Made by a program: the position numbers and the translations under genes. From assembly GCA_018175275.1 (NCBI GenBank), contig GCA_018175275.1_4531.1: a stretch of DNA of 64,000 bases, one strand, 5' to 3'. Source of the DNA: a phage. The notes below the pieces were generated by a model. It did not search any database. It saw nothing but the letters and a program-made list of their open reading frames with translations, and had not been told where the DNA came from. Position 1 is the first letter of the stretch; every line of letters starts with the position of its first letter. Of this stretch, positions 1,074 through 37,923 are shown one piece after another.

Positions 1074-1397
1074 ATGAGATTTACAAGACAAGAGGTAGTT
1101 GTGCTGGACGAAGCAATGACAATGATCGTCTTTTACTACGAGGATATCTTCTGTGCAGCATATCATTTAAATGATATTCAGATTGAATGGCAGCAGATAG
1201 CATTCCTGTTGGACAAGAGTAATCATTTGGATGGCTTTGAGTATTTGGAGTGGGATGGTGCAAAGGAAGTTAAAATTGTAGGGTTAAATCACGATCAGAT
1301 TGTTGACATGCAATGTAAGTTGTGTCATTATCAGTTCTCAAACAAAGTCAAACTCGAAAGGCAATTGGAGGTGGTTAAAGATGATAGCACTAATTAG
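1074..1397 (+). CDS. hypothetical protein
   Basis: 107-aa ORF; TAGGAGG 5 nt upstream of ATG. Confidence 0.55.
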   Translation: MRFTRQEVVVLDEAMTMIVFYYEDIFCAAYHLNDIQIEWQQIAFLLDKSNHLDGFEYLEWDGAKEVKIVGLNHDQIVDMQCKLCHYQFSNKVKLERQLEVVKDDSTN

Positions 1398-1497
1398 TGA
1401 GAACCCAATCCTGACAACAATTGTTCTGATTTTTGCCATGTGTGTGGTTCACGATGTTCTGGTAAGTTATTTTGACAACAAAGGAGGTAAGAAATGA
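1381..1497 (+). CDS. small hydrophobic peptide (38 aa)
   Basis: Internal ATG of track ORF 1300..1497; GGAGGT 8 nt upstream; hydrophobic core ILTTIVLIFAMCVV; stop overlaps next ATG. Confidence 0.35.
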   Translation: MIALISENPILTTIVLIFAMCVVHDVLVSYFDNKGGKK

Positions 1498-1688
1498 AAG
1501 ACGTTATTCAAATGGTATTCCGTGTCACCCTGGATGATATTCATGTTGTTAAAGGCACCCAGAACTACACAGAAGCGAAAGAACATTTCCTGGAATGGGT
1601 TGAGACGTTGAAGACACAAAACGTTTCCTACAACCGTGTGACGCTCACTGGCGACCATACCCCAATCATGGAGTACGTAAAGAAATGA
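1494..1688 (+). CDS. hypothetical protein
   Basis: 64-aa ORF; AAGGAGGT upstream. Confidence 0.55.
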   Translation: MKDVIQMVFRVTLDDIHVVKGTQNYTEAKEHFLEWVETLKTQNVSYNRVTLTGDHTPIMEYVKK

Positions 1689-1924
1689 GCAAATATCCAA
1701 TTACAGGTGTAACCTATTCTTGTGTATCAAAAGGTGGCTTATATACGGTCGTGGAATTTCCAAAACCTGCCGGAATATCTAAAGTGTTTGATCCTGTTGT
1801 TATCTATGAAGATCTTAGAACAGGTCAACGTTATTGGAGATTTGTGAATGACTTTTTAGATCGTATGGAGGTAGTAAGTGGCGAAAACACCGAAGAAGTT
1901 ATCAAAGCCAAAGAACGTTACTAA
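1685..1924 (+). CDS. hypothetical protein
   Basis: 79-aa ORF; ATGA start-stop overlap with upstream gene. Confidence 0.5.
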   Translation: MSKYPITGVTYSCVSKGGLYTVVEFPKPAGISKVFDPVVIYEDLRTGQRYWRFVNDFLDRMEVVSGENTEEVIKAKERY

Positions 1925-2231
1925 GAAACCGAAAAACGAGGTTCTCAAAGTAGCCAAATCAGTTCCTAAGAAAGATAAGTTTGATACGGAGGCATTCGTC
2001 TTTGACACACCAATCGAGAAGATTGAAGAAGCGTTGCAACGTCTTGAGGAGCAGGAGGCAGATCCAATGGCTGAACCACTCACGGCAGACCAAATCTATT
2101 GGTGGGGAATATGGACTTTGCAACTGCCAGAAGCAAAAAGAAGAGGAATGACTTCAGTTCCTACTTGTGCAAAAGAAGCTGCTGTGTTAGGTTTGTATGA
2201 GAAATCTAAAAAGAGGAGCAAAAAGAAATGA
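1878..2231 (+). CDS. hypothetical Lys-rich protein
   Basis: 117-aa ORF, GTG start with GGAGGT 5 nt upstream; overlaps 3' end of 1685..1924. Confidence 0.45.
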   Translation: MAKTPKKLSKPKNVTKKPKNEVLKVAKSVPKKDKFDTEAFVFDTPIEKIEEALQRLEEQEADPMAEPLTADQIYWWGIWTLQLPEAKRRGMTSVPTCAKEAAVLGLYEKSKKRSKKK

Positions 2232-2509
2232 TCAAGACTTTCCTGAAGTGTGTAAAAGCAACAGATAGTGAGTGGTACTCTGGATTATTCACTGTTGGCA
2301 AGAAATATGAGATCCTCAACGGGACAGGCAAGAAGTTTTCTCTCGTTGTAAACGATGAAGGCACGAAGCAAATGGTATTTGCTGAAAGCTCTGTCTATGG
2401 TATCTTTGAAGTGGTGCAAGAAGGCTCTCCAATGATTCTGGAGTATCATGGCACTAATAAACCATATACTGCTATGGATGTTATCAACAACAAGAGGAAT
2501 GCAAAATGA
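2228..2509 (+). CDS. hypothetical protein
   Basis: 93-aa ORF; GAGGAG upstream; ATGA overlap. Confidence 0.55.
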   Translation: MIKTFLKCVKATDSEWYSGLFTVGKKYEILNGTGKKFSLVVNDEGTKQMVFAESSVYGIFEVVQEGSPMILEYHGTNKPYTAMDVINNKRNAK

Positions 2510-2688
2510 TTTTGCTCTATTCCGGTAAGGCAAAATACATGCAAGGTGTTAAACGCGTAGAGGTTACTAGGACAGTAACAATAGGGAAATCTTTTATCGT
2601 TTATTGTTTCCTTGTTAATGGGAAGGAGTATGCTGTAGCAAAGACCTTGGTTGATAATGGTAAAACTTGGAAAGTGGAGGCACTATGA
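2506..2688 (+). CDS. hypothetical protein
   Basis: 60-aa ORF; ATGA overlap; AGAGGAA upstream. Confidence 0.5.
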   Translation: MILLYSGKAKYMQGVKRVEVTRTVTIGKSFIVYCFLVNGKEYAVAKTLVDNGKTWKVEAL

Positions 2689-2882
2689 TCACTGTAGCTG
2701 GGTGGGTGGTATTGGCAACACTTAATGGGAATGTTACTGTGGAGACTAAAACCATCTTCAAAGCACCAGAAGATTGCTATAACTCCTTGGTAACTTGGCC
2801 TCGTGATGAGGATGATAAGGCAGAGTATCAGTGTTTTTACATTGAGGGTAAGCCTGTAGAATTTGAGGTGAGGGTGAAATGA
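2685..2882 (+). CDS. hypothetical protein
   Basis: Internal ATG (residue 7 of track ORF 2667..2882) with GTGGAGG upstream and ATGA overlap. Confidence 0.5.
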   Translation: MITVAGWVVLATLNGNVTVETKTIFKAPEDCYNSLVTWPRDEDDKAEYQCFYIEGKPVEFEVRVK

Positions 2883-3364
2883 AAATAAAAATTACTAAAG
2901 CACATGTAGATAACCCACAATTCTTTTCTTTGAATACAAGCTACGATATTAAAAACGGAGATGAGTTTGATGTTGTTGATATTGTAACAGATTCCGATGG
3001 CGTGGATTTTGGATATATGATTGTTCCTCCTTGTGGCGGTAGTCCTATTGTTGTATTGCGTGACGAAGCTGTAGAAGTGAGTTATGATGAATCCCAATAC
3101 GACAGTCCATATATGACAGAGTGGATCGTGGCTGTAGATGTTGGAGGTATGGTTTCTGTACTGAAAGCTCCAAATCTCCACCCTGGTTTTACAGAGAACG
3201 GTAAGACAGCTTTGGATTATGGGTTGCCAGAAGATGTTGAGAATACACCGCCAGGTATGTACCGTTGGATTTGCTCTTTCCATGAAGAGAAGGATTGGGA
3301 ATCAGGGCTTGTGGAGGATTGGCATTTTGAAGTGGAGAGTTCTTTTTTAATCATGCCTGCTTAG
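2879..3364 (+). CDS. hypothetical protein
   Basis: 161-aa ORF; GAGGTGAGGG upstream; ATGA overlap. Confidence 0.55.
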   Translation: MKIKITKAHVDNPQFFSLNTSYDIKNGDEFDVVDIVTDSDGVDFGYMIVPPCGGSPIVVLRDEAVEVSYDESQYDSPYMTEWIVAVDVGGMVSVLKAPNLHPGFTENGKTALDYGLPEDVENTPPGMYRWICSFHEEKDWESGLVEDWHFEVESSFLIMPA

Positions 3365-3374
3365 AGGAGGTTAT

Positions 3375-3731
3375 ATGGGTACTATTATTTGGCTTGATGA
3401 TTTACGTGATCCAAAAGATTATGGTTATCCAGATGCAATCTGGTTTAAAACATCACAGGAACTTCTTGCCTCTCGTTACATGAATGAGGTGCAGAAGGGT
3501 TATCGTTTTGTAGACGAGTGGCATTTTGACAACGATTTGGGTGAAGACTCTGATCGAGATGGGTATGATGTTTTCTTACATTTGGAAGAACTCCTGATGT
3601 TTGGTAAACCTTGTTTTGGTTCACCTACTATTTTCGTGCATACTTCTAATCCCTCCGCTGGGGATAAATTCATGCTTGCAAAAGAATCCATGCTGCGTTA
3701 TGGTATTCAAATGAAGCGTGTTCACTATTAA
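3375..3731 (+). CDS. hypothetical protein
   Basis: 118-aa ORF; AGAGGAGG upstream. Confidence 0.55.
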   Translation: MGTIIWLDDLRDPKDYGYPDAIWFKTSQELLASRYMNEVQKGYRFVDEWHFDNDLGEDSDRDGYDVFLHLEELLMFGKPCFGSPTIFVHTSNPSAGDKFMLAKESMLRYGIQMKRVHY

Positions 3732-3742
3732 GGAGAAACTTA

Positions 3743-4099
3743 ATGAGCAGTATTGATCAGAACATTTGTTACCAACCTCTCGCTTGGATCGGTGAGGGGC
3801 ATTATGCGCAACGTGTTATCGTCTGTGCTGCGAATAAGTATATTTTGAATAATGGTGAAGAATTAATTATTCCTTGCGTTAGACATGCAAATCCTGTATT
3901 ATCTGCACAATTGAATGTATTGAAAGAAGCAGGTGTGCTTGATAAAGCGCATTGCCTTCCAAACAATCAAGGTTTTATTGATCAATACTACAATTGGTGG
4001 AGTCGTGAAGATGCATACATCATTGCAAAACACGCAGACCAGATTGACTACGAACGTAATGGTCATGATCGTGACCTATTTAGCGAGGGATTATACTAA
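3743..4099 (+). CDS. hypothetical protein
   Basis: 118-aa ORF; AAGGAGA upstream. Confidence 0.55.
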   Translation: MSSIDQNICYQPLAWIGEGHYAQRVIVCAANKYILNNGEELIIPCVRHANPVLSAQLNVLKEAGVLDKAHCLPNNQGFIDQYYNWWSREDAYIIAKHADQIDYERNGHDRDLFSEGLY

Positions 4100-4650
4100 T
4101 GTTTATTACAAGTGATTTGCATTTTATGCACAAACGTATACGAGAGTTTGCTCCTGAATATCGACCGTGGGAGGATATGGACCACATGACAGAAGCCTTG
4201 ATCGAAGCATGGAACAAATGTGCTACTACTCCTGGTGTTAAGATGTGGCATTTGGGCGACTTCTGTTTCGGAACTGAAGAAGATACCCGTAAAATTGCTT
4301 CTCGTCTCCAAGGAGATATCACCTACTGTGTTGGGAACCATGACTACAGCAAACACCGAGAAGTGCTTGCAGAGTATGGTGAAGTGGTGTATTATGACGA
4401 AGTGAAATATCAGAAGCTGTTCTTCGTCTTAAGTCATTACCCTATGGCCTCCTGGAACAAACAAGGTCGTGGATCAATCATGCTACACGGGCATTCCCAC
4501 GGATCTTTCCCTGATGAAGCTTATGGTAAAATGTTAGATGTGGGTTGGGATGCACACGGAAAAATCTTGCATTTTGATGAGATAATTACTATGATGAGTA
4601 AACGAGATATCGTGACTGTAGACCATCACAAAATAATCAAAGGAGAGTAA
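4099..4650 (+). CDS. calcineurin-like metallophosphoesterase (candidate RNA 2',3'-phosphoesterase)
   Basis: Motifs SDLHFMH (D-x-H), GDFCFG (GD), VGNHD (GNHD); TAATG overlap with upstream gene. Confidence 0.7.
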   Translation: MFITSDLHFMHKRIREFAPEYRPWEDMDHMTEALIEAWNKCATTPGVKMWHLGDFCFGTEEDTRKIASRLQGDITYCVGNHDYSKHREVLAEYGEVVYYDEVKYQKLFFVLSHYPMASWNKQGRGSIMLHGHSHGSFPDEAYGKMLDVGWDAHGKILHFDEIITMMSKRDIVTVDHHKIIKGE

Positions 4651-4651
4651 T

Positions 4652-5584
4652 GTGACTAAATTTAATTGCGACGATTTGGTTGAAAAAGGTTTAGTTCATA
4701 AGAAAACATATAAAGAAGGAGAGTATTCTGGTCTATCTGTTCTTAAGTATAAGAACAAAGTTTTCTGGGATAACCTGTGGAACATTGATTCTCGTCTTCT
4801 AGAATGTCGCGGAATCGTTGTTGACGCTGATGACAATGTTGTTATTTGGCCTTTCACTAAGATTTTTAATCGTTTTGAGAATGGCACAGATCTACCAGCG
4901 GATGAATTTGTAGATGTGGTTCGTAAAGTAAATGGTTTTATGGCCTCTGTAGGTGTATATAAAGGTCAACTTATTGTATCGACAACAGGAAGCCTTGAAT
5001 CAGATTTTGCAAGTATTGCAAAGAATCATATTGTTTCAGAGTGTGATGACATAGAACATTTCATCAAATGGACAGAGAGTGCAAAAGCAACTTTCCTTTT
5101 TGAAATCTGTGATCCTTCTGATCCGCATATTGTCGAAGAAGAACCAGGTGCATACTTAATTGGTGCCAGAATTCAAAACCCTGATGGGACAAGTTTTATG
5201 TTACCTGAAGGTGCTCTTGATGGAATTGCTTCTGTCACCAAATTTAAGCGTCCTGAAGTTCATCCAATGGTTAAGTTTTCAGATGTTGTTGAAATGTCTA
5301 AACATTGTAAACACGAAGGGTTTGTAGTTCGTGAAACAAACTATCCGTTCAACTTACTTTTAAAAATTAAATCACCACACTATCTTACTAAGAAGTTTCT
5401 TATGCGCGGTGGAGATAAAAAGTGGGATCTGATTTGGGATAATCCAAAAAATGCCAAACAAATGGTTGACGAAGAATATTACGCTTTGTTAGAATGGATT
5501 CGAAATAATTTTACGAAGACTCAATGGGCTGCTTTAAATCAGCAAGAGCGACGTGAAAAAATCGAAAACTTTTTTGGAGGATAA
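4652..5584 (+). CDS. Rnl1-like ATP-dependent RNA ligase
   Basis: 310 aa; LECRGIVVD segment resembling T4 Rnl1 as recalled; candidate nucleotidyltransferase motif I as K-V-N-G; GTG start after AGGAG. Confidence 0.55.
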   Translation: MTKFNCDDLVEKGLVHKKTYKEGEYSGLSVLKYKNKVFWDNLWNIDSRLLECRGIVVDADDNVVIWPFTKIFNRFENGTDLPADEFVDVVRKVNGFMASVGVYKGQLIVSTTGSLESDFASIAKNHIVSECDDIEHFIKWTESAKATFLFEICDPSDPHIVEEEPGAYLIGARIQNPDGTSFMLPEGALDGIASVTKFKRPEVHPMVKFSDVVEMSKHCKHEGFVVRETNYPFNLLLKIKSPHYLTKKFLMRGGDKKWDLIWDNPKNAKQMVDEEYYALLEWIRNNFTKTQWAALNQQERREKIENFFGG

Positions 5585-5989
5585 ATGAAACAACTTATCA
5601 TTTTACGTGGCGTTTCAGGTGCTGGTAAATCTACAGTAGCAGAAATTATTTCTGAAGGTTATTGGCCTATCTGTGAGGCAGATCAATATCATTACACAGA
5701 GAGTGGTGTTTACGATTGGAAGCCAGAAAATGTAGGTAAAGCACACGCATGGTGTCAGGGTATTGTTCGTGATGCTATGGCATCTAATCTTAACAAGATT
5801 ATTGTTTCTAATACTTCAACCACAGAGAAAGAACTTAAACCTTATCTAGCTCTTGCTGAAGAGTTTGGTTATCAAGTTATCTCTTTAGTTGTTGAAAATA
5901 GGCACGGTAATGATTCAATTCACGAGGTTCCACAATATATCCGTGATCAGCAAGAGAAACGTCTTCGTGGTTCACTTAAACTTCAATAA
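5585..5989 (+). CDS. P-loop polynucleotide kinase-like protein
   Basis: Walker A GVSGAGKST near N-terminus, 134 aa, adjacent to ligase and phosphoesterase. Confidence 0.65.
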   Translation: MKQLIILRGVSGAGKSTVAEIISEGYWPICEADQYHYTESGVYDWKPENVGKAHAWCQGIVRDAMASNLNKIIVSNTSTTEKELKPYLALAEEFGYQVISLVVENRHGNDSIHEVPQYIRDQQEKRLRGSLKLQ

Positions 5990-5998
5990 GGAGAAATA

Positions 5999-6325
5999 AT
6001 GCAGATTTATACAGATGATCGTAAATATGAGACAATTTTAGATGAAGATACTGGACGAATTACCGTTCTCCGTCACGGTGAAGAGTGGCGTGATGAAACG
6101 GGAGACAATTATATCTTGTCTCTGATTCATCTTATTGAACAAATGCGTGATGATTACGCTGAACTGCATTATGAAAATGAGGCTAATAAAGTAAAATTTG
6201 AAAATGAATTAGAAGAGAAAGAATCCGAAATGGTATATCTAAAAGAAGAGATCTCCCGTTTGGAGGAAGAGATTGATGCTCTTCAAGAAGAGATTTACGA
6301 ACTCAACAACGAACTGAACGCTTAA
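5999..6325 (+). CDS. hypothetical acidic coiled-coil protein
   Basis: 108-aa ORF; AAGGAGA upstream; E-rich heptad-like C-terminus. Confidence 0.5.
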   Translation: MQIYTDDRKYETILDEDTGRITVLRHGEEWRDETGDNYILSLIHLIEQMRDDYAELHYENEANKVKFENELEEKESEMVYLKEEISRLEEEIDALQEEIYELNNELNA

Positions 6326-6334
6326 GGAGGGATT

Positions 6335-6523
6335 ATGAAAAAAGATATCGTTGTTGGTTGGCTGACTTGCCCTTGTGGTAGTAATGACATAACTGTAAAC
6401 ACAGAGGGTGATAAAAATTATTTATTCTACGGGGATAAAATCACTTGCAATACCTGCGGACGTGTTGGTATTATAGAAACCGATGATTGTTGTGCTTTTG
6501 AATCTTGGGATGAAGAAGAATGA
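6335..6523 (+). CDS. small zinc-ribbon protein
   Basis: 62 aa with CPCG...CNTCG; AAGGAGGG upstream. Confidence 0.5.
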   Translation: MKKDIVVGWLTCPCGSNDITVNTEGDKNYLFYGDKITCNTCGRVGIIETDDCCAFESWDEEE

Positions 6524-6741
6524 GTACTGCATTTTATGTTCGTAGCGGAGACGAGGATTTTCTGGCTACTTTTGATGACGGTGATATTGAAGATATGTAT
6601 GACGATATGCTTGACTATGCCAAAGGGCAAGGTTTCACAAGCATTGATTATATGTTGGCAACATCTACAACGTTACTCGACGCAGATTTGGATGAAGTGT
6701 GTAACAGATTGAAAATTTCAGTTTTTAAATGGGAGGACTAA
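6520..6741 (+). CDS. hypothetical acidic protein
   Basis: 73-aa ORF; ATGA overlap. Confidence 0.5.
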   Translation: MSTAFYVRSGDEDFLATFDDGDIEDMYDDMLDYAKGQGFTSIDYMLATSTTLLDADLDEVCNRLKISVFKWED

Positions 6742-7856
6742 TGCAACAAACAAATCAAACGCTGTATGGTAAAGATTCAAAAGGAAAACTTAAACAGTGG
6801 ACAGTGTATACAGATGGTGCAGTTGTTACTGTAGCTCATGGAAGGGTAGGTGGAAAAATCACAGAAAAATCTTATACAGCAGAAGCAAAAAACATCGGTC
6901 GTTCCAATGAAACAACACCGGAAGAACAAGCTGAACTTGAAGCTTTTGCCAAATGGACAAAACAGTTAAAGAATGGCTATTATAAAACAAAAGAAGAAGC
7001 TGAAAACCATGTTCCTTCTACACCAATGAAATGCCAGGATTATAAAGATTATCCTGAAAGGGTTGTGTTCCCTGGTTATGCACAATACAAACTGAACGGG
7101 TTACGTTCTATGATTAACATGAAAGGGGAGTGTTTATCAAAAGCTGGGGAAGTGTATAACCTGCCACCTCATTGGAAAGGTATTCCAAACTTTATTAGTG
7201 AAGTTGTTGGTCATCCTCTTGATGGTGAAGTGTTTGCTGGGTTAGGTGTCCTTAGTCTGCAACAAATTAATAGTGCCTGGAAGAAGCATAATGCAAATAC
7301 ACCTTTGCTGAATTATTACGTATATGATATTCCAGTTCCAGATCTACCGTTTGAAAAACGTGTTGATGTTCTTGCTGCTCTTAAGGCAGTAGTTGAAGAT
7401 TATGGTCTTGATGAGCTTATTTGTGTAGTTCATACAGAGTATATTGAAAACCAAGAACAGTTTGATGCTTTCTATGAAAAAGCTTTACTTGAAAAGGCTG
7501 AAGGTGTAGTATATCGTAATGCTCGCGGAGTTTACGAATTTGATAAACGCTCTTATGACGTTATTAAACGTAAACCTCGTCATACTCTTGAAGTTAAAGT
7601 AACAAATTCAAAAAGTGATAAAAATGGTGATGGAGTGTTGACAGGCGAGATGGAAAATGGTAAAGTAGTCGAATTCTTAATGCGTAAAGATGCTCATGAG
7701 ACTATCAATTATCGTAAAGCAGAGAATGCTTCTACCTTGATTAATCAGTTCGTTGAAATAGAATATGAAGAATTTTCAGATGAAGGTATTCCGACAAAAC
7801 CTGTTGGTGTTCGTATTCGAGAAATGATCCCAGGCACTTGGGAACCAGCAGAGTAA
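6741..7856 (+). CDS. ATP-dependent DNA ligase-like nucleotidyltransferase
   Basis: Motif I variant YKLNGLR (KxDGxR with Asn); GGGAGG upstream of second ATG of track ORF 6729..7856. Confidence 0.6.
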   Translation: MQQTNQTLYGKDSKGKLKQWTVYTDGAVVTVAHGRVGGKITEKSYTAEAKNIGRSNETTPEEQAELEAFAKWTKQLKNGYYKTKEEAENHVPSTPMKCQDYKDYPERVVFPGYAQYKLNGLRSMINMKGECLSKAGEVYNLPPHWKGIPNFISEVVGHPLDGEVFAGLGVLSLQQINSAWKKHNANTPLLNYYVYDIPVPDLPFEKRVDVLAALKAVVEDYGLDELICVVHTEYIENQEQFDAFYEKALLEKAEGVVYRNARGVYEFDKRSYDVIKRKPRHTLEVKVTNSKSDKNGDGVLTGEMENGKVVEFLMRKDAHETINYRKAENASTLINQFVEIEYEEFSDEGIPTKPVGVRIREMIPGTWEPAE

Positions 7857-7865
7857 GGAGGAAAA

Positions 7866-8060
7866 ATGTTTTTAGCCATTCTAATCGTTTTCAGTGCGCT
7901 TTCTTTTTATTGTATGAATGCTTCGGAAAACTTTCCTAAGAATTCAAAGAAAAGAACCGTATGTGTTGCGATTGATTCATGTATGTCTGGAGTTGGGTAT
8001 GCGGTAGTTTCTTGTTTCTTAGCTTATCATTGTGCAAAATACTTGGAGGCATTTTTATGA
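7866..8060 (+). CDS. small membrane protein
   Basis: 64 aa, hydrophobic N-terminus; AAGGAGG upstream. Confidence 0.5.
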   Translation: MFLAILIVFSALSFYCMNASENFPKNSKKRTVCVAIDSCMSGVGYAVVSCFLAYHCAKYLEAFL

Positions 8061-8239
8061 TAATTTTAGCAACAATTCTTATGATGTTGATAGCAATTGC
8101 TATTGTAATACTGGCATCTTTTCCAGCGGATAAATGGTATTTCAATATTCCACGTATGCTTGTTTTCGGTTTTGCAGGAATTTACATGGGTGAGTCTGTA
8201 GTAAATATTAGCAACTTTCTAGAAAGCTATTTTAAATAA
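8057..8239 (+). CDS. small membrane protein
   Basis: Internal ATG of track ORF 7979..8239; GGAGG upstream; ATGA overlap; two hydrophobic segments. Confidence 0.5.
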   Translation: MIILATILMMLIAIAIVILASFPADKWYFNIPRMLVFGFAGIYMGESVVNISNFLESYFK

Positions 8240-8248
8240 GGAGTTATA

Positions 8249-8974
8249 ATGATCGAGAATTTTTTTAAAGATATTAAATTCGATACTGAATTTTTCAAAA
8301 ATGCAGCAAAGCACGTGATTGATTGGAATGCTAAAGCGCGAGGTGGTGAACAACCTGAATTTACTCAAGAGCTATTTATGTCCCAAATCGGGTTCGTTCG
8401 TGAAGAACTTAAAGAGTATGAAACAGCCGCGAAAGTAAACGATCATGTAGAACTCTTGGACGCAGCAGCAGATATTTTTGTAGTATCCAGTTATCTGACT
8501 TACATGTTCTTTGGTGAAGAACATACGATGAATTTCTTGGACTATACTGTAGGTGATGTTTTTACTCCGACTGTGTATACTGACTTTGATGCTTTGGAAC
8601 AAACATTTACAGAGCCAGTTCAAATGGCACTAATGGCTGCTGGTATTATGCGTATGTCTCGTGACACTCTCATTCGTTCAAAATATCCAGAAAAGAAAAT
8701 TATTAAAGAAGTATTGAAAAGTAACGATTCCAAGTATCCAACTAAACAACAGTTGCTGAAAACTTGGAAAACTTCAGATATCGATTCAGCCATTGCACAA
8801 GAATGCACTGCAATTGAAGAACGAAACGCCAATCGTCCAGAAGGAGCATACACGGGTGTTCATGCTGTTTATAATGAAAAACAGAAAGTGTATGTGTTCT
8901 TTGATGATAAAGGTAAGATCATGAAGTGGTCAGGTTTCATTAAACCCAACATTGCAGCTATTATCAAAAAATGA
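8249..8974 (+). CDS. hypothetical protein, possible MazG-like all-alpha NTP pyrophosphohydrolase
   Basis: 241 aa; EELKEYE...ELLDAAADIF pattern reminiscent of MazG/dCTPase EExxE...D motifs; AAGGAG upstream. Confidence 0.4.
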   Translation: MIENFFKDIKFDTEFFKNAAKHVIDWNAKARGGEQPEFTQELFMSQIGFVREELKEYETAAKVNDHVELLDAAADIFVVSSYLTYMFFGEEHTMNFLDYTVGDVFTPTVYTDFDALEQTFTEPVQMALMAAGIMRMSRDTLIRSKYPEKKIIKEVLKSNDSKYPTKQQLLKTWKTSDIDSAIAQECTAIEERNANRPEGAYTGVHAVYNEKQKVYVFFDDKGKIMKWSGFIKPNIAAIIKK

Positions 8975-9612
8975 TAGGTTCAACAAAGGGAGATTTTAGA
9001 ATCTCCCGTCTTTCTGAAACCAAGATTGACAATCAAACTACTTTTGTATGTTTATGCTTGGTATGCCAAAAAGAAAGTTTAAGAACATTGTCCAGTCTGA
9101 AAAGATCAAAGAGTCCGAAATGCATGTATTGTAGTAAGGGCGATGGCCTATCTAATAAGGAACGATATACTTACGAAAGTTATCGTAATATGCTACAAAG
9201 GTGTTATAATGAAAATTGTGAGCACTATGATAGATACGGTGGACGAGGAATTACTGTTTGTGATGATTGGAAGAAATCATTTAACACTTTCTTGAAAGAC
9301 ATGGGTAAGCGACCTAAAAACCATAGTTTAGATCGTGTAAATGTTGATCTTGGTTACAGTAAAGAGAATTGCAGATGGACAACACAAAGTGAACAGATTC
9401 GAAACAGAGGTAAAACAAAAAGCAAGTATTCAAATTTTAGGGGAGTCTCCTATGACAAAGCTAAAAATAAATGGCTGGCTTTTATTTGTTTCGATAAGAA
9501 AACAAAATATTTAGGAAGATATACTACAGAGTTGGAAGCGGCTGAAGCTTACAATCTCGAAGCATTAGAGTTAGGTATGTCTAACTATTTTTTAAATACC
9601 CGTTTTAAATAG
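8971..9612 (+). CDS. HNH homing endonuclease with AP2-like DNA-binding domain
   Basis: SLDRVNVDLGYSKENCRWTT (HNH_3-like) followed by FRGVSYDKAKNKWLAFI...YLGRYTTELEAAEAYN (AP2-like). Confidence 0.65.
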   Translation: MIGSTKGDFRISRLSETKIDNQTTFVCLCLVCQKESLRTLSSLKRSKSPKCMYCSKGDGLSNKERYTYESYRNMLQRCYNENCEHYDRYGGRGITVCDDWKKSFNTFLKDMGKRPKNHSLDRVNVDLGYSKENCRWTTQSEQIRNRGKTKSKYSNFRGVSYDKAKNKWLAFICFDKKTKYLGRYTTELEAAEAYNLEALELGMSNYFLNTRFK

Positions 9613-36646: not shown

Positions 36647-37138
36647 ATGTTTCAAGTAGAAATTCATGTGCACAACAGTTGTTCAAATTGCGAAACTTGT
36701 GGTTACAATAGTTCAACCATGATCACTATTAGCGGAGACTTAGGAGATGCCAAGTTTGGCGAAGTTGCAAGCTGCTTCAGCGGAGAGGATGCAGATTGGC
36801 ATGATATTGCACACTGGTTGGTGAGCAAACTAAAAGAAAAAGAGAAACCATTTCCTGCTCTGCTTGATCGTTCTCTTGTGGAAGATGCAGGTAAAGCATA
36901 TGCAGACTATGCATATGCAGACGGGAAATATTTGGAAGATGATAAGGCTAACCATTTGCTTTATGTTTACTATGAAGCTGAATCTGCCTACGATAATTAT
37001 TACAGCATGTCCAACATTCTACGTTTGTTTGCGGAGTTTGATATTTACTTTGAAGTGAGTTATTCTCAAGACGAAGTGCACGATTTGGATGACGAAGATT
37101 ATGATGATTATGAGGAGGAAGAATGCCAAGACGATTAA
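36647..37138 (+). CDS. hypothetical Zn-finger protein with acidic tail
   Basis: CSNCETCG near N-terminus; D/E-rich C-terminus; GGGAGGAAA upstream; preceded by hairpin/T-run at 36607-36635. Confidence 0.5.
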   Translation: MFQVEIHVHNSCSNCETCGYNSSTMITISGDLGDAKFGEVASCFSGEDADWHDIAHWLVSKLKEKEKPFPALLDRSLVEDAGKAYADYAYADGKYLEDDKANHLLYVYYEAESAYDNYYSMSNILRLFAEFDIYFEVSYSQDEVHDLDDEDYDDYEEEECQDD

Positions 37139-37923
37139 TAGTGATCAGCGGCGCTGGCTTAAGCGCCGATAGCGGTGTTCGTACTTTCCGCACTGACACA
37201 GAAAGTGGCAAAGCTTTGTGGGATGAATACGACCTTTCTGAAGTGTGCGACATTTTCAACTTCCGTGCTGGATACCAACAAGAACAGTGTGTTCCTGGGG
37301 CTGTTGGCGGATTAGATGCAGAGGGATACAACCTCTACCGTAAAACTCATGACTTCTACAATAAACGTCGCGTAGAGATGGATAGTGTAACTCCTAACGC
37401 TGCGCATTACCAGATCGCGGAATGGTTTCAAGAGTACGGCTGTGATCGTGTTATCAACATCACGACAAACGTAGATGATCTTCTGGAACAAGCGGGTGTT
37501 GTTCATGAAGATGTTCTACATGTTCACGGCTTCCTGCCTGAAGTGATCGTAGACAATAGAATCATCAAAGATGTTGGCTATGCTGCTATCGATGTGGATG
37601 ATTACAAGTATGTGAAGCCCAATGTAGTGTTCTTTGGGGAGACTGCCCCATTGTATAACGATATGTACCACATCTTAGACGGCTTGACGGCTCAAGATAT
37701 GGTGATTGTAGTGGGTTGCTCTAATCAAGTTATCAATTTTAACTGGGAGCTTTTTCCTGCTCTTAATAGCGGGACAAAAATGGTTGTAGTTAACCCTGGA
37801 GTTAATTACGAAGAAACACTTCTCTATGAAGATCGTGGAGTTTTTGTTTACCGAGAAAAAGCTGCAACAGCCTTCAGCAATGAAGGTTTCATTAAAATGG
37901 TCGAAGACCACTTAAACAAATAA
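37123..37923 (+). CDS. SIR2-family protein lacking the zinc-ribbon module
   Basis: GAGLSADSGVRTFR, TTNVDDLLEQAG, VHG, VVFFGE, VVGCS in sirtuin order; GAGGAGGAAGA upstream. Confidence 0.65.
   Translation: MPRRLIVISGAGLSADSGVRTFRTDTESGKALWDEYDLSEVCDIFNFRAGYQQEQCVPGAVGGLDAEGYNLYRKTHDFYNKRRVEMDSVTPNAAHYQIAEWFQEYGCDRVINITTNVDDLLEQAGVVHEDVLHVHGFLPEVIVDNRIIKDVGYAAIDVDDYKYVKPNVVFFGETAPLYNDMYHILDGLTAQDMVIVVGCSNQVINFNWELFPALNSGTKMVVVNPGVNYEETLLYEDRGVFVYREKAATAFSNEGFIKMVEDHLNK

Follow-up and report, generated by a model that had tools for sequence, protein, structure and literature searches.

A predicted phosphoesterase–ligase–kinase cassette for RNA repair in a Phapecoctavirus

Three adjacent genes of a Phapecoctavirus infecting E. 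coli, encoding a calcineurin-like metallophosphoesterase, an Rnl1-family RNA ligase and a P-loop kinase, probably constitute a stand-alone RNA heal-and-seal set. The phage is 98–99% identical to sequenced relatives and was analysed over a stretch of 64,000 nucleotides (GenBank assembly GCA_018175275.1, contig GCA_018175275.1_4531.1; hereafter the window). In the proposed mechanism, tRNA or other RNA would be cut by host ribonucleases (PrrC/RloC anticodon nucleases, toxin RNases or Cas13-type collateral RNases). The metallophosphoesterase, possibly after ring opening by a cREC protein, would strip the 3'-terminal phosphate to leave a 3'-OH, and the 134-aa P-loop kinase would phosphorylate the 5'-OH at the expense of an NTP. 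The Rnl1-like ligase would then self-adenylylate at Lys92, pass the AMP to the 5'-phosphate and seal the break. We infer the substrate (RNA, probably tRNA), the role and product of the phosphoesterase, and the identity of the triggering nuclease. The literature searched yielded no biochemically characterised member of the ligase, kinase or phosphoesterase clade.

Organization of the cassette and its neighbourhood

The cassette is located in a long early/middle gene block on the + strand. The genes considered here are:

3375..3731, + strand, cREC protein, 118 aa (PF20274 cREC_REC, 52.7 bits against a cut-off of 27)
3743..4099, + strand, T4 Arn.3 / T4_Y16D-family protein of unknown function, 118 aa (PF26092, precomputed on all homologues)
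4099..4650, + strand, metallophosphoesterase, 183 aa
4652..5584, + strand, Rnl1-family RNA ligase (predicted), 310 aa, GTG start
5585..5989, + strand, P-loop kinase, 134 aa, stand-alone
6741..7856, + strand, ATP-dependent DNA ligase, motif I KLNG (PF01068, 2.9e-9; phrog_114, 5e-74)
8249..8974, + strand, MazG-like nucleotide pyrophosphohydrolase (PF01503, 28 bits; phrog_671)
37123..37923, + strand, Sir2-family protein, 266 aa (PF02146, 6.5e-20)

The three ORFs of the cassette occupy 4099–5989, and their description in the first-pass annotation as adjacent and coupled is borne out by gaps of -1, 1 and 0 nt. The ATG of the phosphoesterase gene is overlapped by the TAA of the preceding gene (TAATG), a single nucleotide separates the phosphoesterase and ligase genes, with GGAGAG 5' of the ligase start, and the ligase and kinase genes abut, with GGAGG within the 3' end of the ligase gene. 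The ribosome-binding sites of the coupled genes sit within the preceding genes. Family matches are far above chance, the PHROG matches across the cassette region including values of 1e-55 to 4e-71. The near-identical phage nepoznato carries nine tRNA genes immediately 5' of the point matching the window start.

The repair unit exceeds three genes, with cREC on its 5' side, MazG on its 3' side and Sir2 at a distance. The cREC protein, a receiver-like domain with a predicted role in cyclic-phosphate processing, is a probable further member of the set; it has a receiver-type constellation of invariant residues (D8, D9, D52, N53, D54, T90 and K98 in eight sequences), and its gene adjoins the ligase gene in phages FV3 and KB57 and in 11 of 80 viral loci. 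The cREC–ligase linkage has been described previously (PMC7824862; PMC9503650). MazG, found 3' of the ligase in 17/89 loci, is a recurrent neighbour in rV5-like phages and is listed in the rV5/Mydo neighbourhood (PMC9503650). The Sir2 gene is 31 kb downstream of the kinase gene, and its product is 51% and 57% identical to the Sir2 proteins of FV3 and KB57, respectively, both of which adjoin ligase–cREC. The Arn.3-like gene lies inside the cassette, but its membership in the repair set is doubtful: the family is present in 1657 phage records, mainly T4-like, in contexts that are not specific to RNA repair, with adjacency to the ligase confined to close relatives and locus L075. The DNA ligase is outside the RNA repair set. 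No methyltransferase domain, such as would mark a Hen1 methyltransferase, was found in the 18 ORFs (1074–9612) scanned with Pfam.

Linkage in other phages

Linkage was assessed in 80 viral contigs or loci (IMG/VR) carrying ligase homologues at 41–88% identity, a sample that is not phylogenetically independent. Within 3 kb of the ligase, the kinase is present at 71 of the 80 loci, the phosphoesterase at 64 and both at 57. Writing M, L and K for phosphoesterase, ligase and kinase, gene order is shuffled (MLK at 26 loci, KLM at 19, KL at 14, and others), and the phosphoesterase flanks the ligase on either side despite inversions. Kinase and ligase are fused into one protein in some viral contigs, in the domain order kinase–ligase. 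Conserved linkage through reshuffled gene orders, together with these fusions, backs a functional coupling of the cassette genes.

The same trio also occurs in Vequintavirus, Mydovirus, Pakpunavirus, Otagovirus, Thalassavirus and Saclayvirus, and ligase homologues are found in 736 phage records, including phages of Escherichia, Klebsiella, Pseudomonas, Vibrio and Acinetobacter. The more distant Streptomyces matches among these phage records may pair with a T4-type polynucleotide kinase, not with the kinase and phosphoesterase of the cassette. In Pakpunavirus, Otagovirus and Thalassavirus, the ligase–kinase pair is adjoined by genes of NAD+ salvage (NAMPT and PRPP synthetase), neighbours that leave room for a different chemistry.

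The RNA ligase

The ligase is predicted from its sequence to be an ATP-dependent RNA ligase of the Rnl1 family. It matches Pfam PF09511 with 56.7 bits (cut-off 28.3; 4e-15), residues 51–244 spanning profile positions 1–227, and phrog_562 at 4e-71; the homologue search returned 1744 sequences. The first-pass annotation had pointed to an ECRGI segment like that of T4 Rnl1 and to KVNG as a candidate motif I, and both assignments withstand profile alignment to T4 Rnl1 (PDB 2c5u, E = 6e-11). The segment LLECRGIVV (residues 49–57) places R53 on T4 R54, and motif I (K92-V-N94-G95) places Lys92 on the adenylylation lysine Lys99. Further T4 residues align as K75 with K70, F77 with F72, G102 with G95, E159 with E151, E227/G228 with E222/G223 (motif IV) and K240/K242 with K238/K240 (motif V). 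The residues specific to the Rnl1 N-terminal subdomain and motifs III, IV and V are thus all present, and across 25 homologues R53, K70, K92, N94, G95, E151, E222-G223, K238 and K240 are invariant, with F72 kept in at least 90%.

The ligase differs from T4 Rnl1 at two positions that we take to be essential in the T4 enzyme, Asp101 (motif I) and Lys119 (motif Ia), which are replaced by Asn94 and Thr112; both replacements are invariant in its clade. It also scores only 23.8 bits against the T4 RnlA equivalog model TIGR02308 (cut-off 242). The alignment extends no further than T4 residue 250, and the ligase lacks the C-terminal tRNA-specificity domain of T4 Rnl1 (approximately residues 255–374); the C-terminal remainder is short (about 65 residues against about 124 in T4) and dissimilar. 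Because this domain is missing, tRNA specificity of the ligase is not implied.

As the first-pass annotation had noted, Asn takes the place of the KxDG Asp in both ligases of the region; YKLNGLR of the DNA ligase aligns with KLDG of the bacterial ATP-dependent DNA ligase 4d05 and with KRNG of the African swine fever virus (ASFV) ligase 6imj. The motif I Asn is a known variant, with precedents in fungal Trl1 and the ASFV DNA ligase (KRNG). Fungal Trl1 has TLKENG as motif I, its Asn150 touching the catalytic metal via water, and EGFVIR as motif IV (PMC6379707). The corresponding motifs of the phage ligase are KxNG and EGFVVR, versus KEDG and EGYVAV in T4 Rnl1.

A further reading is that the gene serves mainly in tail-fibre attachment, the second activity of T4 gp63, and both phrog_562 and many GenBank records do carry the label 'RNA ligase and tail fiber protein attachment catalyst'. 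That label, however, is inherited from T4 gp63, the C-terminal half of which is missing here. The ligase catalytic residues are invariant, and the gene stands in an early nucleotide-metabolism block beside the kinase and phosphoesterase, far from structural genes, all of which makes a tail-fibre role barely plausible.

The P-loop kinase

The kinase is predicted to be a 5'-OH polynucleotide kinase of the N4BP2 / HD-Pnk / CNPase-associated clade, not a nucleoside kinase, in keeping with its initial description as a Walker-A polynucleotide kinase. Its Walker A motif is GVSGAGKST (G9-VSGAG-K15-S16), and it matches Pfam AAA_33 (41.1 bits, cut-off 27, 2.7e-10) and phrog_505, a polynucleotide kinase family (8e-8). 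Its profile best matches, among PDB structures, Pnkp1 (8e-7), a component of the Pnkp1/Rnl/Hen1 repair complex, followed by T4 Pnk (1e-4) and the Clostridium thermocellum Pnkp kinase (1e-3). An AlphaFold model (pLDDT 91.4) has the C. thermocellum enzyme and T4 Pnk as its nearest Foldseek neighbours (TM 0.72–0.77). The invariant D33 aligns with the general base D35 of T4 Pnk. T4 Arg38 is without an aligned arginine, the kinase having His36 there (at least 90% conserved), and the invariant R106 (ENRHG) falls on T4 R122, not R126, in the HMM alignment. The protein is a single domain of 134 aa and has no T4-type fusion to a HAD 3'-phosphatase. Elsewhere the clade is fused to Rnl1-like ligases, HD phosphoesterases, CNPase and N4BP2-like Smr proteins; CNPase is a 2',3'-cyclic phosphodiesterase.

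The P-loop protein could instead be a small-molecule kinase (nucleoside, nucleotide or nicotinamide riboside) serving nucleotide or NAD+ metabolism. Its weaker PDB profile matches are to nicotinamide riboside, gluconate and adenylate kinases (E = 0.002–0.1), NAMPT and PRPP synthetase are its neighbours in the three genera named above, and GenBank often names it merely 'ATPase'. Polynucleotide kinases, however, provide its best matches in both sequence and fold, the fusion partners of its clade all process nucleic-acid ends, and its 134-aa chain has neither the lid nor the NMP-binding inserts found in nucleotide kinases; a small-molecule substrate is accordingly highly improbable.

The metallophosphoesterase

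The phosphoesterase is assigned by sequence to the aq_1665-like / Metallophos_2 group, with an intact metal site. The D-x-H, GD and GNHD motifs recognized at first reading are all present, and the full series of calcineurin-like metal-ligand motifs (DxH, GD, GNH[DE], H and GHxH) is found as D6-x-H8, G53-D54, G79-N80-H81-D82, H113 and G131-H132-x-H134, invariant in 26 homologues; the list of invariant positions comprises D6, H8, H11, G53, D54, G79, N80, H81, H113, G131, H132, H134 and D151. The protein matches phrog_547 at 1e-55, its single-sequence Metallophos_2 score (25.2 bits) is slightly below the cut-off of 27, and its only clear solved relative by profile is PDB 1xm7 (aq_1665; E = 5e-24), itself of unknown function. 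Motif II reads GDFCFG, without GDxxDRG; the profile does not match the Pnkp phosphatase among PDB structures at E <= 1, and none of the known RNA 3'-healing enzymes has a detectable sequence relation to the protein.

Gene linkage makes the phosphoesterase a candidate 3'-end healing enzyme, acting as a 2',3'-cyclic phosphodiesterase and/or a 3'-phosphatase. Alternatively, it may only share the early-gene block with the ligase and kinase and act on cyclic or linear nucleotide immune signals, or on DNA ends together with the DNA ligase in the manner of the ligase-associated DNA-damage endonuclease PdeM. Such a role would accord with the lack of a sequence link to Pnkp- or lambda-type RNA/protein phosphatases and with the unassigned function of aq_1665. 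A DNA ligase gene lies 2 kb downstream, and 14 ligase–kinase loci, including the fusion group, are without a phosphoesterase within 3 kb. The match to PdeM itself is weak (E = 0.003) and, at 16.8 bits, far under its cut-off of 150; a DNA ligase is present in merely 33/89 loci, whereas in 64/80 no more than 3 kb separates the phosphoesterase from the RNA ligase, through inversions and reshuffling. A function outside RNA end healing is therefore improbable.

Relationship to known RNA repair systems

The cassette resembles T4 Pnk (pseT) plus Rnl1 (gene 63) in its predicted combination of 3'-end healing, a 5'-OH kinase and an ATP-dependent Rnl1-type ligase. Within this T4-like set proposed by the first-pass annotation, the ligase and kinase families and their linkage are upheld, and the 3'-healing activity stays a candidate role drawn from gene linkage. 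The adenylyltransferase domain is homologous to that of T4 Rnl1 (shared motif I lysine, ECRG and motifs III, IV and V), and the kinase has the Pnk fold, P-loop and general-base Asp. Unlike in T4, where a HAD phosphatase is fused to the kinase, the candidate 3'-healing module is a separate metallophosphoesterase. The kinase is a 134-aa protein of the N4BP2 / HD-Pnk-type clade, and in the ligase Asp101 and Lys119 are replaced by Asn and Thr and the C-terminal tRNA-binding domain is lacking.

The closest described arrangement is the rV5/Mydo-type sirtuin-linked RNA repair neighbourhood, a computational prediction (Iyer, Burroughs, Anantharaman and Aravind 2022, section 3.7.3; PMC9503650), a neighbourhood type also treated in PMC7824862. 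Its T4-like ligase, cREC, nucleotide kinase, MazG and calcineurin-like phosphoesterase all have counterparts within 3375–8974, and their orthologues in FV3 and KB57 are 30–75% identical. The present locus differs in that the three cassette genes directly follow one another in one orientation, an Arn.3-like gene separates cREC from the phosphoesterase, and the sirtuin is not inside the neighbourhood. The cassette is not new: such genes are annotated in the genomes of relatives, and the neighbourhood type is in print (PMC9503650).

The bacterial systems Pnkp/Hen1 (C. thermocellum) and Pnkp1/Rnl/Hen1 (Capnocytophaga gingivalis) likewise combine a metallophosphoesterase-superfamily enzyme, a P-loop kinase and an ATP-dependent ligase, and Pnkp1 is the top PDB match of the kinase profile. 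The first-pass view that the arrangement is more like bacterial Pnkp is accurate in that the putative healing enzyme belongs to the metallophosphoesterase superfamily and not to the HAD phosphatases; it does not extend to the enzyme family. Because the phosphoesterase comes from a different, aq_1665-like family without the lambda-phosphatase-type GDxxDRG, the resemblance is one of analogy only. The cassette further differs in having three small separate proteins versus one kinase–phosphatase–ligase polypeptide, and in its Rnl1-type ligase, and no Hen1 was detected in the flanking ORFs scanned.

Fungal and plant Trl1 offers a different comparison, since the ligase shares with it a KxNG motif I and an EGFV(I/V)R motif IV, kinase–ligase fusions occur in related phage contigs, and Sir2 is a possible NAD+-dependent clean-up partner, as Tpt1 is for Trl1. 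In place of a T4-like pathway, the same genes might run a Trl1/Tpt1-like, NAD+-dependent route: cREC (or the phosphoesterase) would open the cyclic phosphate to a 2'-phosphate and a free 3'-OH, the kinase would phosphorylate the 5' end, the ligase would seal the 2'-phosphate-bearing ends, and Sir2 would take off the junction 2'-phosphate with NAD+, as Tpt1/KptA does. The ligase motifs resemble those of Trl1 more than those of T4 Rnl1 (PMC6379707), a cREC gene lies two genes upstream, the sirtuin that FV3 and KB57 encode beside the ligase has an orthologue in the window, relatives link the ligase–kinase pair to NAMPT and PRPP synthetase, and exactly such a sirtuin role has been proposed (Iyer et al. 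2022; PMC9503650). Overall, however, the ligase sequence is nearer T4 Rnl1; Trl1-LIG was undetected by the ligase search even at E <= 10, and no sequence relation between the two is detectable beyond the nucleotidyltransferase core. Trl1 is a ligase–kinase whereas the phage fusions run kinase–ligase, and the cassette is without the 2H cyclic phosphodiesterase that completes Trl1. Sir2 is 31 kb away, cREC occurs in only 11/80 loci, and the metallophosphoesterase, far commoner than cREC in these loci, would suffice for a T4-like route. We know of no sirtuin for which removal of RNA 2'-phosphates has been demonstrated, which also counts against the NAD+-dependent route, and that route is rather unlikely. 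A more specific form of it is unlikely too: a phage Trl1/Tpt1 pathway of cassette, cREC and Sir2, in which the ligase would prefer 2'-phosphate ends from cREC and the sirtuin, not KptA/Tpt1, would remove the 2'-phosphate with NAD+. If true, it would explain the linkage to NAD+ salvage enzymes in relatives. T4-like healing and sealing by the three cassette proteins is the preferred reading.

Biological significance

The wide occurrence of defences that cleave tRNA (PrrC, RloC, PARIS, OLD, Cas13 and Cas12a3) is now recognised. Phage counter-measures besides spare tRNAs are, to our knowledge, experimentally known from T4 alone. The ligase–kinase–phosphoesterase set has a far wider distribution than its T4 counterpart, and many of the phages with ligase homologues are therapy candidates. 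The present cassette is an unexceptional representative of a predicted class, known from existing annotations and a published prediction. Biochemical study of its enzymes would define a second RNA repair system of phages, modular in build, and would establish what the aq_1665-like phosphoesterases and the N4BP2-related mini-kinase clade do.

Gene layout and close relatives

A three-gene RNA-repair cassette had been proposed in the first-pass annotation, and the three open reading frames (ORFs) were recovered with all of the motifs quoted for them, each of which is invariant in the homologue alignments:

4099-4650, + strand, metallophosphoesterase, 183 aa
4652-5584, + strand, Rnl1-family RNA ligase, 310 aa
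5585-5989, + strand, P-loop kinase, 134 aa

The trio is embedded in a long co-directional gene run, with intergenic gaps of -1, 1 and 0 nt and Shine-Dalgarno sequences placed within the preceding genes. Scans for promoters (31 promoter-like sites; 27 expected) and terminators (8 terminator-like sites; 4.4 expected) were uninformative. No tRNA genes were found in the window; Escherichia phage nepoznato, a near-identical relative, has nine, clustered just past the window's left end. Over positions 3000-8000, identity is 98.7% with Phapecoctavirus 536P1 and 97.8% with nepoznato (Stephanstirmvirinae), 57 phage records span at least 80% of this region, and the trio is annotated in nepoznato as 'phosphoesterase', 'putative RNA ligase' and 'ATPase / putative polynucleotide kinase'. 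The DNA as such is thus already on record.

RNA ligase

The ligase matches Pfam RNA_lig_T4_1 (56.7 bits; cut-off 28.3) and phrog_562 (4e-71). As a single-sequence phmmer search of the PDB gave no match, T4 Rnl1 was reached with a profile built from 25 homologues that are 49-86% identical to the query (E = 6e-11, residues 48-239). The profile alignment has no gaps around motif I and places K92 on K99, the adenylylation site of T4 Rnl1, bearing out the KVNG segment earlier put forward as a candidate motif I. The arginine of the ECRG segment (R53) aligns with T4 R54, and K70/F72, E151, E222-G223 and K238/K240 correspond to T4 K75/F77, E159, E227-G228 and K240/K242. Across the clade, two residues differ invariably from T4 Rnl1: Asp101 is replaced by Asn94 and Lys119 by Thr112. 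Precedent for the Asn is provided by Chaetomium Trl1-LIG (TLKENG), in which Asn150 contacts the catalytic metal via water (PMC6379707); profile searches detected no relation of the ligase to Trl1-LIG, even with the threshold relaxed to E <= 10.

The same Asn for Asp in the KxDG motif had been claimed for the DNA ligase at 6741-7856, and is present there as KLNG: in alignments, its motif YKLNGLR falls opposite KLDG in a bacterial ATP-dependent DNA ligase and KRNG in that of African swine fever virus. Motif I Asn is a known minority variant among RNA and DNA ligases, and its presence in both of these enzymes is no functional link between them.

The RNA ligase stops ~65 residues beyond motif V and shows no alignment with the C-terminal tRNA-specificity domain of T4 Rnl1, so homology does not imply tRNA specificity. 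The NCBI equivalog model for T4 RnlA scores 23.8 bits on it, against a cut-off of 242. Judged by sequence, the protein is a predicted Rnl1-family adenylyltransferase and, strictly, not an orthologue of T4 Rnl1.

Kinase

The kinase matches AAA_33 (2.7e-10) and phrog_2071, with a weaker match to phrog_505 'polynucleotide kinase'. Searched against the PDB, a 28-sequence profile matched Pnkp1 from the Pnkp1/Rnl/Hen1 repair complex of Capnocytophaga (8e-7), then T4 Pnk (1e-4) and the kinase domain of C. thermocellum Pnkp (1e-3), and these polynucleotide kinases outranked nicotinamide riboside, gluconate and adenylate kinases. D33 is invariant and aligned with the T4 general base D35, and Foldseek matches the AlphaFold model (pLDDT 91.4) best with CthPnk and T4 Pnk (TM 0.72-0.77). 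An exhaustive profile search (E <= 1e-10) gave 9314 cluster representatives. Among the multi-domain proteins of the clade are an Rnl1-like ligase fused to the kinase, an HD phosphoesterase with the kinase in both orders, a CNPase fused to the kinase, and an N4BP2-like protein that combines three kinase repeats with DUF1771 and Smr. These fusion partners all process nucleic-acid ends and thus, together with the ranking of matches, argue against a nucleoside kinase, the alternative against which the polynucleotide kinase assignment had been set.

Phosphoesterase

The phosphoesterase matches phrog_547 (1e-55) and scores 25.2 bits, slightly under the cut-off, against Pfam Metallophos_2. Its metal-ligand set (D6, H8, D54, N80, H81, H113, H132 and H134) is invariant in 26 homologues. 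The sole convincing match of its profile is Aquifex aq_1665 (1xm7, function unknown; E = 5e-24), with none to the Pnkp phosphatase or lambda phosphatase, so that 3'-end healing is assigned to it from context alone. Given this, and a motif II of GDFCFG rather than GDxxDRG, the likeness to bacterial Pnkp drawn in the first-pass annotation holds as an analogy and not as a relationship.

Linkage across phages

A scan of IMG/VR yielded 80 loci, which are non-independent samples, with ligases 41-88% identical to that of the window. In tblastn searches, 71 of the 80 have the kinase no more than 3 kb from the ligase, 64 have the phosphoesterase that close and 57 have both. With M for phosphoesterase, L for ligase, K for kinase and C for cREC, gene orders are M-L-K (26 loci), K-L-M (19), K-L (14), M-L-C-K (6) and C-M-L-K (4), with one inverted pair. 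Kinase and ligase are fused in a single ORF of 421-432 aa in about a dozen loci (L060-L074), as confirmed by translation and Pfam.

Kinase-ligase fusion ORFs on IMG/VR contigs (motif I, KING)
L060, 7569-8834
L062, 7536-8831
L074, 577-1872

Despite the non-independence of the loci, the persistence of adjacency while genes are rearranged or fused is the usual mark of functional coupling. At L060, a second RNA ligase (PF09414, OB domain) lies 1.7 kb downstream of the fusion, and no phosphoesterase is nearby. An apparent phosphoesterase-ligase fusion at another locus (L018) was rejected as an ORF-calling artefact, the two reading frames being divided by an in-frame stop.

The same trio occurs in the annotated genomes of FV3 (Vequintavirus), KB57 (Mydovirus), C11 (Pakpunavirus), phiPsa374 (Otagovirus), Athena (Thalassavirus) and P1 (Saclayvirus), where it commonly adjoins NAMPT and PRPP synthetase; in FV3 and KB57, it adjoins cREC, Sir2 and MazG. 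At four loci (L004, L005, L006 and L008; Otagovirus, Pakpunavirus, Thalassavirus and Mydovirus), ligase and kinase lie within a few kb of NAD+ salvage genes, namely ribose-phosphate pyrophosphokinase and nicotinamide phosphoribosyltransferase. This recurrent link in four genera lies outside what a simple T4-like repair scheme accounts for.

The wider gene set

The repair unit exceeds three genes, with cREC, MazG and Sir2 also present in the window; they are listed here with three further genes:

3375-3731, cREC (PF20274, 52.7 bits)
3743-4099, T4 Arn.3 / T4_Y16D-family gene, between cREC and the phosphoesterase
5999-6325, + strand, 108-aa coiled-coil protein (phrog_18076, 'hol-like chemotaxis'), directly after the kinase
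8249-8974, MazG
8971-9612, + strand, AP2-domain ORF, 213 aa, between MazG and an RdgC-like gene
37123-37923, + strand, Sir2 (PF02146, 6.5e-20)

The cREC domain, defined by Iyer et al. (2021), is predicted to open 2',3'-cyclic phosphates (PMC7824862), and the window protein keeps its receiver-type DD...D...T...K residues. In GenBank/RefSeq, the nepoznato cREC gene (L001:5376-5732; NC_052658 14306-14662) is named 'putative RNA ligase and tail attachment protein', a name apparently transferred from the adjoining gene. The window Sir2 is an orthologue, at 51-57% identity, of the sirtuins of FV3 and KB57, which directly adjoin the ligase there. It is just 75% identical to nepoznato Sir2, whereas the cassette is ~98% identical, so the genome is mosaic at Sir2. 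The rV5/Mydo-type set has been proposed by Iyer et al. (2022) to clean up and ligate RNA ends with cyclic phosphates (PMC9503650), and the window holds the Phapecoctavirus version of this system, with the sirtuin displaced. GC skew flips sign at ~38 kb (cumulative maximum, 36-38 kb), coinciding with the point just past Sir2 where the + strand early-gene block ends and - strand genes take over.

The gene at 3743-4099 was considered as a missing sirtuin or repair component and rejected: its Arn.3 / T4_Y16D family is found in 1657 phage genomes, in settings that bear no relation to RNA repair. Its product gives a confident model with no fold neighbour in the PDB, and it is treated as a passenger, left out of the repair set. 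The coiled-coil protein is conserved solely in close relatives. The AP2 DNA-binding domain at 8971-9612 scores 30.3 bits, slightly under the 33.3 that Pfam requires; the corresponding spot in nepoznato lacks a gene, and the ORF is probably a homing-endonuclease-type insertion.

Proposed function and significance

The cREC and Sir2 genes, NAD+ salvage neighbours and ligase motifs resembling Trl1 (KxNG and EGFVVR) would fit a Trl1/Tpt1-like route, with a 2'-phosphate intermediate from which Sir2 removes the phosphate NAD+-dependently. Such a route is unlikely, however, because the ligase is nearer T4 Rnl1 in sequence, Sir2 is distant in the window and most ligase loci have no cREC. The cassette probably heals and seals RNA that host ribonucleases have cut, and the core of the RNA-repair interpretation made from the DNA alone is supported. 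Removal of 3'-phosphates would fall to the phosphoesterase, perhaps together with cREC, 5'-phosphorylation to the mini-Pnk and sealing, via Lys92-AMP, to the ligase. By analogy with T4, and given the nepoznato tRNA genes just upstream of the window start, the substrate is probably tRNA.

Literature searches found no experimental work on the cassette. It belongs to a class already annotated in GenBank and predicted in print, and is of modest significance.
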